Virus record (IMG/VR): IMGVR_UViG_2778261085_000012
Span: 1 to 25,936 of that record
From: a virus
Lineage: Duplodnaviria; Heunggongvirae; Uroviricota; Caudoviricetes
DNA length: 25,936 bases
Strand: one strand, 5' to 3'
A model generated the notes under the pieces. It did no database searches and was not told the origin of the DNA. It saw nothing but the letters and a program-made list of their open reading frames with translations. The position numbers and the translations under genes were made by a program. Below are positions 1-24,912 of the stretch, in pieces; positions within the stretch are counted from its first letter, which is position 1; every line of letters starts with the position of its first letter.

Positions 1-570
1 CTATGCCGGAGGATATTTATTCATTCTTTCAGATATGTGAATGGAACGATTGTCGATTATATTTGTATCAAAAATAGTTACGGCAGGATGATTAAAACAG
101 ATAGAGTGTTTAGGTCTAAGTAAATGTAGTGTTTGCAATCTGGTTATCGCTGTGTTATCAAAATTTGAGAAGTCAACAACAAGATCTACATTCAGTTTTT
201 TTATCTTTGCTTTTAGTTCGTTAAATTTATTTTTCTCGTAAGATATAAAGGCATCCACGCCAACAATATCAGTAAAGAGGAATGATACTCTTGAAGGTGC
301 TATCACATATACCACCATACCGGATTTTTGAAGTTGTTTAATAAACCCTGAGGTAACGATGCCGTCACCAATGGCCTGCATGTGCATGAAAATGCACACT
401 GTTTTATAACTATCCGGCTGTAATGATGTTTTCCTTCTGTATCGCATTTTTAGAAATGCCAGTCTGGCCTTCGTCTTTATCTTTTTTGTTTTAATATTTC
501 GCTGTCTGTTAAGCTGTTTTAATGATGAAATAACATTCATAATGGTACCCTGAAATTCCAAATCACACAT
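1..570 (-). CDS. AT-rich cargo protein; resembles only the N-terminal domain of GT9 heptosyltransferase-type glycosyltransferases (possibly truncated)
   Basis: ORF 1..600 ends with a stop at 1-3; first codon of the track ORF appears to be TTG, first ATG about 570, start uncertain. Segment KTVCIFMHMQAIGDGIVTSGFIKQLQ...VVYVIAPS has the layout of a GT9 N-terminal Rossmann domain. GC content far below neighbouring phage genes. Occupies the P2 Z/fun cargo slot downstream of G. Confidence 0.4.
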   Translation of the reverse strand: MCDLEFQGTIMNVISSLKQLNRQRNIKTKKIKTKARLAFLKMRYRRKTSLQPDSYKTVCIFMHMQAIGDGIVTSGFIKQLQKSGMVVYVIAPSRVSFLFTDIVGVDAFISYEKNKFNELKAKIKKLNVDLVVDFSNFDNTAITRLQTLHLLRPKHSICFNHPAVTIFDTNIIDNRSIHISERMNKYPPA

Positions 571-634
571 GTCATCCGAAATGAGCAGGGTACTATACAA
601 AAAACTGGACTACAATGGTTTGAAATGAAAGCCT

Positions 635-1234
635 TTATGCTTGTTTACTCCTTGATTCCACTGGGGAAGCAGGCCACTCAATATCCGGTGCTCTTGATGT
701 ATCAACACGGTTCAGCAGCACTCGATACTTCTTCCATGCCACCAGTAACGATGTTTCTTCCTCTGTTGCAATATTCAAATCCACGGCATCCTGAAGTGGC
801 GAAATATGCTCACTGGCTACCTGCATGAGGCTGTTTTTTGTTTCTTCCGCCTCCCGTATCCGGAACACTTTTTCTGCTTCTGCATCTTTCACCCACGTTG
901 TGCCGTTCCACTTCTGAAACTCCCCTTCCGGGGATAACCAGGTGACATTTTCCGGTAATGGACCAAGTTCAGAAATAAATAACGCGCCCCCTGATGCCAC
1001 GTCATAAACCGTTTTACCACGATGATCTTCAACGAGATGCCAGGACGCCTTATCACTGTTGAAAATTGCCACGAAGCCAGCTGGAATATCTGGCGGAGCA
1101 ATATCAGTACTATTTGCAGGTAGACCTGTATGAGGTGGAATGTATGCATCACCTTCACCAATAAATTCATTAGTTCCGGCCAGCAGATTATAAATTGTTA
1201 TGGTCCGTGGTTGTTCACTCATTCTGAAATCCAT
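635..1234 (-). CDS. G: tail fibre assembly chaperone (Tfa, P2 gpG-like)
   Basis: N-terminus [48 protein letters not shown] and C-terminus [33 protein letters not shown] match enterobacterial Tfa proteins; track codon 1 appears to be GTG, ATG at codon 3 preceded by GAGG. Confidence 0.85.
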
Positions 1235-1242
1235 GTTCACCT

Positions 1243-2145
1243 CTACTTAATATCAGAGACAGAATATTGTTTATTGAGCGTATGGGTGTGAGCACCAATA
1301 ACGATGCTACTTCCGTGGCTATGTGCGCCAGAGATGACATTACCTACGGGATTTTCTGGATTAATCCGGTGTATATGCGAACCAGGGCGAAACCGGTTAT
1401 TAGCCTGATGTTGTATCAGTACATCATCAGCCTGATGTTCAGGGTTAATACAGACCTGCCCGGAACGGGAGCAATACGTCCGATAATCGCCGCATCCAAT
1501 ATATTTAGTATCCGCATAACGGCAAACAGAATTACCCGGACAGTATGCATATGTGCCAAATACTGCCGACTGGCGGGATTGTGCGTATTCCCAGTTAATT
1601 GATTCTGTTTTTTTATTAAAGTTATCCCATGCCTGCTTCATCTGCCGGGCAACACTTTCAAACGGAACCTGACCACATCCGGCTCCCATTGCAGGGAATA
1701 CCACCGTTTTTATTTTCCTGTCTGTCGTTGCGTGTTTATTGTGCTGAAAGATGGCAAGCAGAGCGGCCCAGGTTGCGTTATATACAGCGTCTGTTCCGTC
1801 AATTGTCAGCGGAACACGCATTGTTGGCGCATGTACCAGCCAGGGGTGATGATTATGCCCCGTTTCAATAACAAATGCAGAACCTACAGGCTGCTCGCCG
1901 AGATATTCACGAAGAATATGATTCTGAACGCGGGACTGTAACTGAGTACCGAAGAATGCGGTAATGGCGGCATCAACACCGCCATCCATCAGGCCGAAAC
2001 TGTTTGCCGCACTTACCATGCAGTCAAATTCCCTGATTGTTTCAAATGGCTTTCCGACAATATTCACATTATCTGCATTTGCGAATACCCGCTTAAATGC
2101 TTCAGCCATTTCTGTTACTGGTGCAGAAAGAATGAGCGTAATCAT
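1243..2145 (-). CDS. macro-domain (ADP-ribose binding/processing) protein with C-terminal HxH fibre-tip-like repeats
   Basis: Three macro-domain motifs: [65 protein letters not shown]-terminus SHIH...[18 protein letters not shown]. Start ATG overlaps the H stop codon (ATGA); stop lies a few nt before G. Confidence 0.7.
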
Positions 2146-4121
2146 GCAAGCCTCACAATATAGTTAAATGCGATGTTTTTGACGGTGTTTTCCGCGTTGC
2201 CATAAGCGGCAATGGTAATGGTGTGTGTATGCGAACCAATAGCGAGCGTATGTGTATGCGCACCTATTGCTACTGTGTGAGTATGAGCTCCTGCGCTTAA
2301 TACGCGATTACTTGCTGTCTTGCTTGTGTTAGTTGCATGCATTCCACCACCGGTACCGGGAGTTTCTGCGTATGCTGAAGTATTGTTGTAAGCAAAGTTG
2401 TGTGTATGTGCTCCGGTGTTATTTGTGGATTTAGTTCCGTAATCAAACGACGATGTGGTTTTCGTCCCCAAATCCGTACTGGATGCGCTGGCGCTGTGGG
2501 TGTGCGATTTAATGCCGTCCTGTTCCTGAGACAATACGGCTCGACCACTGGCAGGTTTGCCCTTAATCGTCCAGCCACGCATATCAGGGATCACGCCTGA
2601 CGGATAAGCGGCTGCAAGTTTCGGGTATGCAGATTTGTCAAAAGTCTGCCCCTGCATCAGGGCATAACCAGACGGAACGGTATCTGATGGCCACGGGATT
2701 GGTGCGCCAGGCGGATAAAACTGCTCTGATGGCGTATAGAGTGAATAAACTGTACCGTCCGTTAACCCTTCCGGCTTATTAGCAGAATATGCTGGTGACG
2801 TATGAATAGTCACGCTGGCATTACTGGTATAATCCCATTGAATATTTACACCAGTCGCATAATTTTCGATTGCAACGTAAATATCGTAAGTATCACCAGA
2901 TGTATTGACCCAGGCAAAATTTGTAAACCCTGTCGATGTGCGCTGCCATAAAGCACCAGTAATCCCCTTCGGATTACCATTACCTGCACGCAAAACAAGT
3001 TCAGATATACCTGCCTGTTGAGGTGAACCGACGTTATATCCAGCGCCACCAATCAACGTAATTGAAACAACAGAACTCGCCTGTGGCATGGTTACCGTTG
3101 CTAATTTGAACCAACCAGCACCACCGCTGAATGACATAGTTGTTGAGTTAAGCGTACCAATATCTTTCGGCGTCAGTGTAATATCCGCTGAAAGGGCCTT
3201 ACCATTCACCTTACGGGCAGAAGGTACCCGACCATTCGCATTGTCATTAGCTGCTTTCACTGCTTTCGGTGTCGCGGTAAGCGTTTCAGATGTGCTGTTA
3301 GTCGCGCTGCTTAGCTGGACAATCCCTTTTTGTGCTGTCGTAGCGTCCTGTGCAGTGTATTTCCCGTTAGCAAGGTCATACGCGGCCTTTACCGCTTTTG
3401 GTGTTGCGGCGAGCGTTTCTGAATCGCTGTTGGTGGCGCTACTGAGCTGGACAAGGCCTTTCCGCGCTGTAGTGGCGTCCTGCGCAGTATATTTCCCGTT
3501 AGCAAGGTCATATGCTGCCTTTACCGCCTTTGGTGTTGCAGCCTGTGTTTCAGACACGCTGTTAGTGTCGCTACTGAGTTGAACAAAGCCTTTTGCGGTC
3601 AGCGAGGCGTCCGGGTGACGTCGTGACTGTTCATGCTCTTTCAGTTTGTCATCCACGTAATCCACTGTGGCCATCACCATGGTGTTATCCACGGTAAGTG
3701 CCACAGTGGCAGTGCTGGATACGGTCAGAATGGTGCGAAATGTTTGTGCACGTCCTGATCCTTCGGCAACGGTAGGCTTGTAACTTTCGGCAGTATTGCC
3801 CACCGCGATTAAATCGCCGTGCTCATCAAACACACCAATTTCCCTGATCCAGAATCCGCCCGTTTCTGGAGGAATAACCAGCTCTGCAATAATGCGGTTT
3901 TGATGTGTTGCGTCCAGGATGACGCGATTAACAGTATGTCGCCACACCTCATGCACCAGACGGGTCTGCTTACTGTCTGGTGTGGGCAATGTACCGCCAC
4001 CGTCGCCCACGGCCATATGAGTCAGGCGGACAGGCTTACCATCTGGCGCGGCTGCCTGAGCTAATTTTTTGGCACCCGTATCGGTGATAACGGTTTTAAA
4101 TTTACGTGTTGTGGTACTCAT
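2142..4121 (-). CDS. H: tail fibre protein (P2 gpH-like)
   Basis: 659 aa; N-terminus [26 protein letters not shown]...HEVWRH...IAELVIPPE matches the conserved baseplate-attachment end of P2 H; three approx. 44-aa shaft repeats; C-terminal HxH repeats (AHTHN, AHTHT, AHTHT, SHTHT). Confidence 0.9.
3246..3593 (-). repeat. three tandem approx. 132-bp in-frame coding repeats in the fibre shaft of H
   Basis: Peptide repeat KG(F/L/I)VQLSS(D/A)TNS.SET(Q/L)(A/T)[25 protein letters not shown] occurs three times; the nucleotide repeats are visible directly. Confidence 0.75.
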
Positions 4122-16452: not shown

Positions 16453-16764
16453 TTACTCAGGAAATAACGCCCGGATATTCCCAGCCATCTGGCTGGTTAT
16501 TTTAGCCACTGGTGCAGACTGTGCTTCAAACTTTTTTGAGCTGATTTGTGTCACAGGTAACATCTCATCATCAGCCCATGCGGCCAGTCGGTAAGCCTCT
16601 GCCGGATTCGTCTTCAGAAGTGCCAGCCCGGCCAGAAAAGCCACGCGTTGGCCGCTTTTGCGGGCTTCTGGTGTAAGGCTGTCCAGCCAGGCGCATGCTT
16701 CTCCTTCGTTCTTGACGGCAGCTGGCTTCAGATAGAAACTTATCCGTCTGGTTGGTGTCGTCAT
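16453..16764 (-). CDS. parR: ParR-like centromere-binding protein (plasmid R1 ParR/StbB family)
   Basis: 103 aa; RRISFYLKP...AWLDSLTPEARKSGQRVAFLAGLALLKTNP parallels the R1 ParR N-terminal region; located immediately downstream of the ParM-like gene. Confidence 0.65.
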   Translation of the reverse strand: MTTPTRRISFYLKPAAVKNEGEACAWLDSLTPEARKSGQRVAFLAGLALLKTNPAEAYRLAAWADDEMLPVTQISSKKFEAQSAPVAKITSQMAGNIRALFPE

Positions 16765-16768
16765 TGGT

Positions 16769-17728
16769 TTACTCCTTGTTCATTGCGTACAGCCCATTAA
16801 CCAGAGCAAACTGTGGCACCCCGTCCGCGATGAAAGTCGCATTAACTCCGCAGGCTTCGCGGATAGCGGGTGCCACAATCTCCGCTCCTCCACCGACAAC
16901 CATCACCCGCCCGTAACCCGAAAAACCCGCCAGCGCGCGGATCACGCGTTGTTTCAGTGTTTCCTCCTTTTCACGAATAACTGCCATCAGGCTGGCGTAA
17001 TGCGCGTCATTGTGGATGTGCTGGCGCAGCCAGGCTTCATCGTGGCGATGTTCGATAATGGTACTGGCGATGTGGTGACTGGTGCGCATACCGTTGGTGG
17101 CCATCACCGACAGCACGGCATCGGCCATCAGAGAAACGCCTACGTGTGGATCGCAAAACACCTGGCTGATACCTGCCAGTTGCCCCTGAACCTTTGCCAC
17201 ATCCAGCGTGGTTCCGCCCAAATCCACAATCAGCAGGGATTCAAACGGACTCATGCCAGCCAGTGCTTTAAAGCCAGCCGGAATGGATTCAGGCATAACC
17301 CGCACGTTACGGATAGTGAATGCCTCGCCGTTCTGGTACTCCACCGGGCGCATGACGTTCGCTTTTTTGCGGTTGATGTTGGCCATGTCCGGCTGTGCGT
17401 TTGTGTCGAAATACTCGCTCAGTGGCAGGGTGACAACCACATCCACTTCCTGTGGTGTGATACCTGATTTGACCAGCGCATGATGAATGGCAATCACATT
17501 CACATCGCTGTACTGGTATTGCGTGTCAGTTGTCTGAACAAAGCGATCGCTGACCGGATCAAAATCATAGCGCACGCCATCAATCATGTAGTTTGCGGGT
17601 TGCGTGCCACCGAACGGCGCAGACCATTCCGACTTGAAGCTGTTCGGGCTGATGGCGTTGCGACGTTCGCCGTTCTCAGTCCATGCCAGCTTGATGTTGG
17701 TGGAGCCGTCGTCGATACAAATTTTCAT
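16769..17728 (-). CDS. parM: ParM/StbA-like actin-family ATPase
   Basis: 319 aa; MKICIDDGSTNIKLAW..., YSDVNVIAIHHAL, MPESIPAG, LIVDLGGTTLD and VMVVGGGAE are collinear with plasmid R1 ParM. Confidence 0.85.
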   Translation of the reverse strand: MKICIDDGSTNIKLAWTENGERRNAISPNSFKSEWSAPFGGTQPANYMIDGVRYDFDPVSDRFVQTTDTQYQYSDVNVIAIHHALVKSGITPQEVDVVVTLPLSEYFDTNAQPDMANINRKKANVMRPVEYQNGEAFTIRNVRVMPESIPAGFKALAGMSPFESLLIVDLGGTTLDVAKVQGQLAGISQVFCDPHVGVSLMADAVLSVMATNGMRTSHHIASTIIEHRHDEAWLRQHIHNDAHYASLMAVIREKEETLKQRVIRALAGFSGYGRVMVVGGGAEIVAPAIREACGVNATFIADGVPQFALVNGLYAMNKE

Positions 17729-21071: not shown

Positions 21072-21302
21072 TTAATGGAGTTTGTTTTGCTGCTGGATGA
21101 GCTGTTGAAGCTCGTGCAGATCATCCGCCAGATAGCTGAAAACAGAGGCGGAATAAATGTTTGATAGTGCGTGGCTGCGCTCATGCAACATATTGATGTG
21201 CATGATTTGCGCGACGCGTGTTGCGCGAAAAAGTCTGCGGTTGATTTCGCTGCGGATGTGAATACGCTCAGCGCGGGCGCGCTGTTGCATGCGGTTTGCC
21301 AT
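21072..21302 (-). CDS. hypothetical basic protein (76 aa)
   Basis: ORF downstream of the structured intergenic region, same strand as A; GAGG about 9 nt upstream of the start; overlaps long spurious ORFs, so uncertain. Confidence 0.3.
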   Translation of the reverse strand: MANRMQQRARAERIHIRSEINRRLFRATRVAQIMHINMLHERSHALSNIYSASVFSYLADDLHELQQLIQQQNKLH

Positions 21303-21486
21303 GACGTGGCCTCGTGTATAGTAAGTTTTGAAAACTCACCATCCAGAGTTGAGAATCTCGGGGTGGCGAGACGTACGGGGTTCTCAACACCGGCTACACA
21401 CGATCCCGGCCCGACCGAAGTCGGCCCCGTACGCCCCGCCATAATTCTGACGCGAAAAAGACGTGGCAATACAGTACGCACAAAAA

Positions 21487-21502
21487 AACCGCTGGCGCGG
21501 TT
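21487..21502 (-). terminator. candidate intrinsic terminator (minus strand) inside the early operon
   Basis: On the minus strand: AACCGC gcca GCGGTT followed by T7; short 6-bp GC-rich stem. Confidence 0.35.
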
Positions 21503-21599
21503 GTGCGCGTGTGTAGTCAGCGGGTTGAGAATCCCGGCACCCGTTTTATGAGGTGCAGCGGAAATGTAACCCGACTCAACGAGCGCTGGCAAGCGGTTT

Positions 21600-21627: not shown

Positions 21628-21688
21628 CGCGGCGCAAAAATGGAATGCGCCGAAGGATAGCGGCGTTTATTAACAATGGAGGTTGTTT

Positions 21689-22156
21689 ATGCCTGTTGCT
21701 ATGGAGCAAGCAGACAAGAAGATTTTTTTCCATCTGTGGTACAGCTACTGGCTGGAAGAGATGGTTTTCATACTCAACAACAAGGCCGCTTTTGTGCTGC
21801 GCTCTGGAGCCTTGATTGCTGCGGTGTTGTCTTTTCTTCTGATTGAGTTCCCTGCCCTGATGAGTCTTTGCGGACTGGTGTTTTTTGGTTTTTCCTGGTT
21901 TTGCAGCAAGTGTGAATTCGTCGCCGAACTGGCGTGCTGGCAGAAACAGAGCTATCTGCGTCTGATTACGCAAAGGGATTTTATGACCACTGAACGCCTC
22001 ACTGAGCGCATTCTGCATCTGGAAGAAACGAACAGCGCATACATGAAAGCGATTGTCAGGCCCGCAAAAAACAAAGCGAGTGCATCTGTTGGGTTGTCTG
22101 CCAGCGAACATTTGCGTTACTCCGAAAGGTTAATTTGCTGGTTGTGCAGTTTCTGA
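21689..22156 (+). CDS. predicted membrane protein (155 aa) encoded antisense within the early operon (moron)
   Basis: Strong RBS GGAGG with 6-nt spacer; own promoter; hydrophobic stretch AFVLRSGALIAAVLSFLLIEFPALMSLCGLVFFGFSWF (about 2 TM helices); opposite orientation to all flanking early genes. Confidence 0.65.
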   Translation: MPVAMEQADKKIFFHLWYSYWLEEMVFILNNKAAFVLRSGALIAAVLSFLLIEFPALMSLCGLVFFGFSWFCSKCEFVAELACWQKQSYLRLITQRDFMTTERLTERILHLEETNSAYMKAIVRPAKNKASASVGLSASEHLRYSERLICWLCSF

Positions 22157-22711: not shown

Positions 22712-23122
22712 CTATGCGTTAAATACGGCACGTTGCGCGTCATCAATGAATACAGCTTGAGAGCGTTCTATCAGGCGGAGATTTGTCAGAAGCGCTGATT
22801 CCCTTATGGGGTGAGGAGTGATCAGGTATTTGTTCTGTAATCCGGCGATAATGGTGTATCGCTGTGGCTCCGAGCCAATAGTGTAAATAAGGCGTCCGGT
22901 GTCAGATAAATCCAGTCCGGTGACTGGTTTAGTTTTGAGAAGCGCAAGTTCCACACCCTGTTCTTCGATGATTTTGGCAGCTTCTGCCGTGACTTTTGCG
23001 ACTATCATTGTGTGGGTTGCGACGTCCATGTGAGCATTGGCCACGGCTTTTTTCGCTACTTCGTTTTCTGTCTTTGAAATTTCTTTCAGTGCTCTGATGA
23101 TACCTTCTTCTTTTGCGTGCAT
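22712..23122 (-). CDS. hypothetical early protein (136 aa)
   Basis: ORF in the early operon, correct strand and spacing; family not recognised. Confidence 0.55.
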   Translation of the reverse strand: MHAKEEGIIRALKEISKTENEVAKKAVANAHMDVATHTMIVAKVTAEAAKIIEEQGVELALLKTKPVTGLDLSDTGRLIYTIGSEPQRYTIIAGLQNKYLITPHPIRESALLTNLRLIERSQAVFIDDAQRAVFNA

Positions 23123-23211
23123 TTTTGTATCTCCGTTATTTGCGTGTGCGAATACCTCCGTTAATACGGATGGTTTTCACGTTTTCTTATTTAATTTGAT
23201 GCTTTATTTGT

Positions 23212-23319
23212 ATCGTTATTCACCAGTGAAAAAGCGTTCAATCTTTTTTACTGAATGAATAATTCGCATAATCCCAATGGCGCAGGCCACCGAAATAATC
23301 AGAACAAGCCATGAGATAA
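23212..23319 (-). CDS. candidate 35-aa hydrophobic peptide (not in ORF track)
   Basis: Read by eye: MSIFISWLVLIISVACAIGIMRIIHSVKKIERFFTGE; single TM then basic tail; GGGG about 8-11 nt upstream; starts a few nt after the preceding gene's stop. Confidence 0.3.
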
Positions 23320-23325
23320 ATATAC

Positions 23326-23568
23326 TCATGCAATATTCCCCAGCTTATACGGTTCAATATGTTCCCCGCATTCTGCGGCACAGATCAGCTCGGAAAGTTC
23401 GTTAAGTGCATCCAGATCATCAGCGTAAAAAGCCACGTCATACAGACTCCGGATTGCCCTGGTCAATGAGTCACGGGCTGCACGTTCAGCATGAGCGCCT
23501 GATGCACTTAAGCGAAAATAAAAACGCTCAAGTGCTTTGTTAATGAGAGTTTTATATTCTTTGCCCAT
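23326..23568 (-). CDS. hypothetical early protein (80 aa)
   Basis: ORF in the early operon; acidic protein, no recognised family. Confidence 0.55.
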   Translation of the reverse strand: MGKEYKTLINKALERFYFRLSASGAHAERAARDSLTRAIRSLYDVAFYADDLDALNELSELICAAECGEHIEPYKLGNIA

Positions 23569-23877: not shown

Positions 23878-24216
23878 TTATAAATCAGCCCGTTTAATAA
23901 AACTTTGCCCGCGAAGCAGACGATCAACCGTGCGAAGTGCTTCGTATAATGTGAAATCCTGTCCGAAGTGATTGTCGCCGCAGCTCAATGCAAAAATGCG
24001 GTTTCCGGTAAACGGATTGCGTGGGCATTTGTGGACCACGATTCCAGCTTTCTCAATCAGCCAGGTATGCTCGCCGATTTGTTTTACAGCGTGGCCATCC
24101 GGTGTTGCGTGTGTTTCGCTCAGGCTGTAGCGGATGTTGCTGCGTGATGCGCTGGTAGCGAAACGGTTAGCTTGGCGTTCCGTTTCGGTGCGAAAATTAC
24201 GGCGTTGCTTCAGCAT
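23878..24216 (-). CDS. hypothetical early protein (112 aa)
   Basis: Second gene of the early operon; basic N-terminus; family not recognised. Confidence 0.55.
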   Translation of the reverse strand: MLKQRRNFRTETERQANRFATSASRSNIRYSLSETHATPDGHAVKQIGEHTWLIEKAGIVVHKCPRNPFTGNRIFALSCGDNHFGQDFTLYEALRTVDRLLRGQSFIKRADL

Positions 24217-24509: not shown

Positions 24510-24600
24510 GATGTGATAACCTGTTCAGTCTGTGGTTATTTGTTGCTAAAAGTCGTCTCTAGGCGACTTTTAGGGTTAATTTAGTCGTCTGGAGACCACC
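24510..24600. promoter_or_regulatory. immunity switch region with divergent promoters and operator repeats
   Basis: Direct repeats AGTCGTCT (about 24551 and 24583) plus inverted repeat AAAAGTCG...CGACTTTT between the divergent cox-like and C genes; RBS GGAG before the C start. Confidence 0.5.
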
Positions 24601-24912
24601 ATGTCAAGTGGGTACGAAAAAAAACTGAAAGAGATACGGAAAAGTGAAGGGTTAACTCAAGCTGAGTTTGCAGATGTTACTGGGATAAATCTCGGAACTA
24701 TAAAGAATTATGAGAGCGGTAAAAGAGAGGTTGGTTTAAGCGTTGTTGATCGCGTAATTAATTCTAAGGATTTCGAAAAATACACTATATGGCTTATGAC
24801 GGGAAAAACAAATGAGGCTGCTGGGCAGATCAGTCCCTCTCTCTCCCCTGATGGGCCAGAAAACACATCGTCTTTTCAAAAATCCCGCAAGACTGGTACA
24901 CAGCCCGGCTAA
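24601..24912 (+). CDS. C: immunity repressor, P2 C-type (HTH)
   Basis: 103 aa; LKEIRKSEGLTQAEFADVTGINLGTIKNYESGKR...KYTIWLMTGK parallels P2 C (VLMRKSEYLSRQQLADLTGVPYGTLSYYESG...KYTLWFMT). Confidence 0.85.
   Translation: MSSGYEKKLKEIRKSEGLTQAEFADVTGINLGTIKNYESGKREVGLSVVDRVINSKDFEKYTIWLMTGKTNEAAGQISPSLSPDGPENTSSFQKSRKTGTQPG

Follow-up and report, generated by a model that had tools for sequence, protein, structure and literature searches.

A conserved gene for a predicted small membrane peptide, overlapping a DUF4754 gene in the early operon of P88-like prophages

A very short open reading frame (ORF) in the early region of a P2-family prophage raises two questions: whether it is a gene, and what a membrane peptide of such a size could do for the phage. 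The DNA analyzed here, referred to as the window, is a stretch of 25,936 nucleotides (IMG/VR virus record IMGVR_UViG_2778261085_000012) that is identical to a prophage of the P2 family in E. coli O103:H2 strain 12009 and extends from the tail-fibre genes to the integrase beside btuC. Among named phages, P88 (genus Xuanwuvirus, Peduoviridae) is the closest. A first-pass annotation of the window described an unannotated ORF of 35 aa at positions 23212-23319. The frame has 37 codons, however, and its product of 37 aa, MSIFISWLVLIISVACAIGIMRIIHSVKKIERFFTGE, is given in the ORF list as the minus-strand translation of 23216..23329, TAA stop included (coding part 23219-23329, stop codon 23216-23218); the earlier interval left out the first 10 nt of the gene together with the ATG. 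Nor is the gene unannotated in public records. RefSeq holds it as ECO103_RS31410 (WP_000021656.1, "hypothetical protein"), gp07 of phage P88 (YP_009113050.1, labeled "membrane protein") is 100% identical to the window peptide, and the UniRef names include "Prophage membrane protein." The exact sequence is part of a 183-member cluster. The protein of the Xuanwuvirus prophages and that of the window are the same, in the same place after the DUF4754 gene of the early operon, with no difference between them.

The gene belongs to an early operon that is read on the minus strand from a candidate early promoter, Pe (TTGACA-18-TAAATT, 24578..24607), a sigma-70-like element with 10 of 12 matches in a consensus scan. 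Facing Pe on the plus strand is a gene for a C-repressor-like helix-turn-helix protein of 103 aa (HTH_3, 24601..24912), a layout shared with the switch regions of P2 and 186. From Pe, the order is a Cox-like gene, the DUF4761 gene (23878..24216, minus strand; Pfam PF15958, E = 1.1e-67), a 95-aa gene, the DUF4754 gene (23326..23568, minus strand, 80 aa; Pfam PF15946, E = 2.8e-54), the 37-aa ORF, a 93-nt spacer, and a series of mosaic small genes, after which come an insert with the C4/IsrK RNA and a derepression protein and then the gpA replication endonuclease. Within this early block, the DUF4761 gene usually precedes the DUF4754-peptide pair. The description of the ORF as tightly packed against its neighbors holds for the upstream side, where its start overlaps the DUF4754 stop codon by 4 nt, but not for the downstream side, where a gap of 93 nt precedes the next gene (22712..23122). 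A separate observation concerns the region between the -10 element of Pe and the Cox-like gene, which contains an inverted repeat (24546-24573, CTAAAAGTCGTC-TCTA-GGCGACTTTTAG) with arms of 12 bp and a spacer of 4 nt, found in a scan that permits G-T pairs. This repeat might serve as an operator or, in the early transcript, as a hairpin of the 5'-UTR.

That the ORF is more than a chance frame follows from its hydrophobicity, which exceeds that of every other ORF among the 179 window ORFs of 30 to 60 aa; in shuffled sequence, an average of 0.12 ORFs reach the same level. Its start codon and the TGA stop of the DUF4754 gene share the tetranucleotide ATGA (23326..23329, minus strand), and a Shine-Dalgarno-like GGGG (23338..23341, minus strand) is placed 8 nt upstream of the ATG, within the DUF4754 coding sequence. 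In divergent loci, the position of the GGGG is taken by the purine-rich equivalents GGGAG, GAGGAG, GAAGGGG, and GAGGTGG. Frame disruption in relatives, a check suggested with the first description of the ORF, was examined in 174 related loci comprising those from IMG/VR, those from E. albertii, and contigs reached via divergent partners. All 174 preserve the start codon (ATG in 173 loci and GTG in 1), the -4 start/stop overlap, and the full transmembrane part.

The substitution pattern points in the same direction. For the peptide gene, close relatives give an in-frame pN/pS ratio of 0.21 and the wide set one of 0.31, compared to 0.97 to 1.74 for the other two forward frames and 0.13 to 0.41 for the DUF4754 gene. 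Variable sites fall on codon positions 1, 2, and 3 in a ratio of 10, 5, and 19 (chi-square p = 0.012). The peptide frame is the only one of the six that is open in all 44 distinct sequences; the other five contain stops in these 44, except that one antisense frame is free of stops in 12. Among distant relatives, the peptide retains an identity of ∼55%, compared to <35% for its 80-aa DUF4754 partner. The ratios indicate purifying selection on the peptide gene. Together with the outlying hydrophobicity, the ATGA overlap with its GGGG, the intact frame in 174 of 174 loci, and an identity above that of the partner, they establish a genuine, conserved protein-coding gene, to which the RefSeq and P88 records assign no function.

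Alternative coding frames were considered and rejected. A 47-aa ORF starting with GTG in the +1 frame (23238..23381) contains stops in all relatives; some database proteins enter this frame through a frameshift. The alternative forward frames give pN/pS values of about 1 or higher. One apparent piece of counterevidence, the prophage of E. coli O111:H8 strain 02-3334, in which most of the ORF is absent, is uninformative on selection, since this prophage is decayed and carries an IS3 element. Likewise, the apparent match of 57% identity in phage 503458 (NC_049341) comes from a frameshift-ridden record and was left out of the evidence. The O111:H8 copy (NZ_CP077557.1, 2441895-2447192) is a decayed version of this prophage at the shared btuC site, with the IS3 element in place of the stretch from the peptide gene through the N-terminal part of gpA. 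The record of phage 503458 (28227-31194) shows multiple frameshifts in the DUF4754 gene and the peptide gene, which look like low-quality sequence rather than real pseudogenes.

The C-terminal tail is less constant than the rest of the peptide. Alleles in which a homopolymer indel replaces or truncates the tail make up about 6% of the loci, all with the change in the tail-coding part (23219-23260). Loss of one T in a T5/T6 run gives a 45-aa allele in 8 of the 174 loci, a form that is also present in many NCBI genomes, and gain of one A in an A6 run gives a 30-aa allele in 3 of the 174. These may be real alleles or sequencing errors. The extreme C terminus of the peptide may therefore be dispensable, or the prophages carrying an altered tail may be in decay.

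Directly downstream of the gene, the 93-nt spacer contains a conserved RNA stem-loop (23148..23180, minus strand) with the core UCCGU-AUUA-ACGGA at 23157-23170, followed by GG. The consensus UCCGY-ANNN-RCGGA plus GG recurs in every module examined, irrespective of the gene that lies downstream. Over 28 distinct sequences, the stem is 99.3% paired and includes one covarying pair, C-G to U-A; the G.U wobbles fit the sense strand only, and the z score of the minimum free energy fold is -2.1. An extended form of 13 bp has weaker support. The hairpin matches no family in Rfam and lacks a U-tract on the sense strand. Its position matches that of the early-operon terminators of P2 and 186: in P2, a putative terminator stands after the first early gene block, and here the hairpin stands after the DUF4754-peptide pair. 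In the early operon of 186, the mutually overlapping genes fil and dhr come after apl and cII and ahead of an intergenic terminator, a position equivalent to that of the DUF4754-peptide pair before the hairpin. The correspondence does not extend to sequence, as hhalign gives a probability of 0.8% for homology of the peptide with Fil and 0.3% for homology of DUF4754 with Dhr. Fil and Dhr, as well as CIII of lambda, are not transmembrane peptides, in contrast to the product predicted here, and the peptide matches no Pfam family, Lambda_CIII included.

The adjacency of the hairpin fits an explanation in which the ORF is translated but is without function or purely regulatory. According to this, only the act of translation would matter, for example, by holding ribosomes on the mRNA as far as the hairpin or by setting downstream expression, and the peptide sequence would be irrelevant. 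The existence of alleles with an altered C terminus is compatible with this idea. Nevertheless, it is very unlikely because of the constraint at the level of amino acids: a pN/pS of 0.2 to 0.3, a peptide that is better conserved than the neighboring protein, and residues of the membrane span that are nearly invariant.

The features of the product itself are those of a small membrane protein, as the original description of a hydrophobic helix with a basic tail had stated. The mean Kyte-Doolittle hydropathy over 19 residues reaches 2.68 at residues 3 to 21 of the window peptide. Across the family, the 19-residue maximum is 2.7 to 3.0, located at residues 3 to 21 in the window peptide and in three of the four other variants tested. 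The tail of the window peptide contains 4 K/R against 2 D/E residues. AlphaFold2, used with the family alignment, models one helix from residue 2 to residue 34 with a mean pLDDT of 86.5. The C-terminal flank is amphipathic in the family variants, with a helical moment of 0.4 to 0.7 and a net charge of +1 to +3, and the N-terminal flank consists of two residues only. The positive-inside rule is the established basis for predicting membrane topology. By this rule, the two-residue N-terminal flank and the positive tail predict that the peptide is probably a bitopic inner-membrane peptide with the N terminus outside and the C terminus inside. The sequence, the pN/pS ratios, the hydropathy, and the AlphaFold2 model together bear out the claim of a real and conserved gene for a single-pass membrane peptide in the Pe-driven early operon of a temperate phage. 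With the coordinates and the length corrected, and with the exception of the word "unannotated," the observation made in the first-pass annotation is essentially right and may be regarded as partly confirmed.

An alternative assignment as a lipoprotein was rejected. There is no K or R ahead of the hydrophobic core and thus no basic n-region, and the lipobox ([LVI][ASTVI][GAS]C) is not preserved, since C16 becomes M, I, F, or Y and position -1 becomes V, L, I, or F in family members. An assignment as a holin or antiholin fares no better. The genes annotated as holin, M15 peptidase, DUF2570, and LysC form part of the late region about 14 kb away, the peptide is encoded in the early operon, and it has no match to a holin family in Pfam.

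The peptide family is divided into two length classes, one of 37 aa ending in KKIERFFTGE and one of 41 aa ending in K.IESLFTG[DE]KRRK. Both classes share the motif M-[SN]-[IV]-F-[ILM]-S-W-x-x-L-I-x-[SA]-x-x-x-A-[IV]-G-I-[MV]-[RK]-I-I-x-x-x-K-x-I-[ED]-x-[FL]-F-T. In the family alignment, several residues inside the membrane span are near-invariant, and the conserved positions are S6-W7, S/A13, A17, and G19. This intramembrane conservation exceeds the needs of hydrophobicity and suggests a specific face for helix-helix packing.

An exhaustive phmmer search with the peptide against 1.84 billion cluster representatives recovered 9 clusters, all of one family, and 149 relatives were recovered by a profile search at E ≤ 0.01, from Escherichia apart from a few Salmonella, Shigella, and Citrobacter members. 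Profile searches with the peptide or with DUF4754 gave no members beyond these four genera. A scan of genome contigs for the peptide locus returned at least two loci. This E. coli prophage region, with a DUF4754 protein of 98% identity, is also carried by NZ_JBQPOM010000071.1, a 226-kb contig of a genome labeled Vagococcus sp. WN89Y, probably through contamination or mislabeling of the assembly. No family of Pfam-A, PHROGs v4, NCBIfam, or the PADLOC profile HMMs is reached at E ≤ 0.1, sequence and profile searches of the PDB give noise only (profile E = 1.2), and there is no homology to toxin or inhibitor families in Pfam, PHROGs, NCBIfam, PADLOC, or the PDB. The only family to which the peptide can be assigned is, by these searches, the uncharacterized P88 gp07 family. 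It is confined to Escherichia and close relatives, and this narrow range limits the depth of conservation that can be read from the alignments. Within this range, the region is widespread, being present in 1,387 of 5,426 complete E. coli genomes (about a quarter), including the EHEC and ST131 lineages.

The constant upstream partner of the peptide gene is the DUF4754 gene. An 80-aa DUF4754 or DUF4754-like gene lies directly upstream with the 4-nt overlap in every context retrieved, and the pair stays joined while the other genes of the P2-like early operon vary. The ATGA junction has the classic architecture of translational coupling, which would imply that the two proteins are made together. 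DUF4754 has a range as narrow as that of the peptide and possesses no membrane segment of its own. Its AlphaFold2 model is a long helical hairpin with an additional short helix (pLDDT of 88.8). A Foldseek comparison of this model with the PDB gives no match at E < 1 and returns generic helical bundles only; the sequence and profile searches of the PDB with DUF4754 give only noise, and those with DUF4761 and the 95-aa protein yield noise without a neighbor.

This arrangement can be read in a way that makes DUF4754 the active component. The peptide would then serve as a membrane tether, its cytoplasmic tail binding the DUF4754 protein and holding it at the inner membrane. Membrane-anchored early proteins of other phages organize replication or exclusion in a comparable manner. 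The adjacency and ATGA overlap of the two genes in 174 of 174 loci between mosaic flanks, the confident model of a small helical protein that lacks a membrane segment, and the conserved motif in the peptide tail all agree with such a function. On the other hand, a single peptide allele is paired in one case with a DUF4754 protein 82% identical to the copy in the window and in another with one of 40% identity. The two genes therefore recombine independently and are not obviously coadapted, which argues against tight coadaptation. No covariation between peptide and DUF4754 is evident, and alleles with a changed or truncated tail persist. A tether is considered rather unlikely.

The reading preferred here, to which we give slightly better than even confidence, is that of an early-expressed inner-membrane peptide that is co-made with DUF4754 and modulates or inhibits a membrane partner during early lytic development. 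In the lysogen, the operon would presumably be silent under the C repressor. Upon infection or induction, transcription would start from Pe, by analogy with P2 and 186, and ribosomes ending the translation of DUF4754 would reinitiate at the overlapping ATGA, so that both products are made together. Residues 3 to 21 would span the inner membrane with the two-residue N terminus outside, and residues 22 to 34 would form an amphipathic, net-positive tail on the cytoplasmic face. The conserved residues of the span make it probable that the peptide works by packing its helix against a membrane partner, whether an inner-membrane protein of the host or another copy of the peptide. A cytoplasmic factor, for example, the cotranslated DUF4754 protein, might dock at the conserved tail motif K-x-I-E-x-F-F-T-G-E. 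Of this account, the reality of the gene, the purifying selection on it, its ATGA link to DUF4754, and the prediction of a membrane helix are shown by the present data, and translation, topology, and the action on a partner are inferred.

Peptides of this kind are known from the host. E. coli and Salmonella have a class of small bitopic inner-membrane modulators, among them MgrB, AcrZ, MgtS, MgtR, and PmrR, that is reviewed in PMC12648545. Like these, the phage peptide has fewer than 50 aa, one transmembrane helix (predicted in its case), and a short charged flank, and its presumed mode of action, like theirs, is the binding of a larger membrane protein. It differs from them in showing no sequence similarity and in being encoded in a phage lytic operon instead of a host stress regulon.

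Single-pass membrane inhibitors are also found among phage proteins. PhiX174 E targets MraY, and LysM of the levivirus M targets MurJ. In both, the transmembrane helix carries the specificity for the host inner-membrane protein. LysM and the peptide described here are of equal length, at 37 aa. In contrast to the peptide, which is a predicted early product of a phage with a complete holin-endolysin-spanin cassette elsewhere, PhiX174 E and LysM are lysis proteins of small single-stranded DNA and RNA phages, and no homology to either was detected in the Pfam and PHROG scans.

The suggestion that small membrane peptides of this sort act as host-protein inhibitors or toxins is plausible by analogy, and the second of these options calls for separate consideration. 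A membrane-damaging toxin of the type I or Hok/TisB kind would form oligomers that dissipate the proton-motive force, serving early host shutdown or abortive or addiction killing. The type I toxins Hok/Gef, TisB, Ldr, Ibs, and ShoB are small proteins with a single hydrophobic helix and a charged tail, and the peptide, with 37 aa, has the same size and shape; the recurring small residues S13, A15, A17, and G19 would be compatible with self-association. The genetic setting is different. Searches of Pfam, NCBIfam, and PADLOC place the peptide in no known toxin family, the gene lacks a promoter that would serve it alone, no convincing gene for an antisense RNA accompanies it, and Rfam gives no match here. 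Instead, the ORF is embedded in the long Pe operon and translationally coupled, by its ATGA, to the gene before it, and the wobble pairs of the adjoining hairpin fit the sense strand and not an antisense RNA. A type I toxin-antitoxin arrangement was rejected on these grounds. Strictly speaking, a novel and unrecognized antisense RNA could still lie at this locus. Moreover, a potent depolarizer at the start of the lytic cycle would hinder the replication of the phage. Because of the embedding in the operon, the lack of an antisense RNA, and the lack of a family match, a toxin is regarded as improbable.

A more specific form of the modulator reading treats DUF4754, the peptide, and the hairpin as an early host-takeover cassette of P88-like phages. 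In this scheme, the transmembrane helix would inhibit one host inner-membrane protein, with DUF4754 as a cytoplasmic cofactor. Candidate targets are a divisome enzyme or an enzyme of cell wall precursor synthesis, or the FtsH/HflKC protease that controls lysis-lysogeny factors. The cassette is a doubtful proposal, although, if true, it would provide an inhibitor of phage origin that is new and that could serve to probe an essential membrane target. Time and again, small membrane peptides of phages have been found to inhibit essential membrane proteins of the host in a specific manner.

As it stands, the gene is an ordinary small hypothetical gene that is already annotated. The first block of the early operon in P88-like prophages, consisting of DUF4761, DUF4754, and the peptide, is without an assigned function or literature despite its presence in about a quarter of E. 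coli genomes. The literature searched contains no mention of the peptide, DUF4754, or DUF4761, and the papers on P88 and PhiSM are without functional information. Since the peptide is conserved, easily synthesized, and encoded by phages that grow on K-12 (P88 and PhiSM), it is a cheap and tractable target.

Several further features of the window were recorded beside the peptide gene. In the insert ahead of gpA, Rfam identifies the C4 antisense RNA (21359-21446) and IsrK (21482-21556), both on the minus strand, and directly downstream of the two lies the gene of a 76-aa protein of the "Derepression" family (21072-21302, minus strand; PF25738). The entire segment (21072-21556, minus strand) looks like an RNA-controlled antirepressor module similar to c4-ant of P1/P7, placed within a P2-like early region. 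Between this module and a MarR-like gene, an ORF of 157 aa (155 aa in the RefSeq version) occupies 21683-22156 on the plus strand, opposite to the early operon; it has no match in Pfam or PADLOC and may be a moron or cargo gene. Just downstream of gpA, plasmid segregation genes for ParM and a ParR-like protein (16453-17728, minus strand) form an odd cargo for an integrated P2-like prophage. At the tail-fibre end, positions 693-891 (minus strand) give a full-length match to the Rfam RNA IS009 with 184.9 bits.
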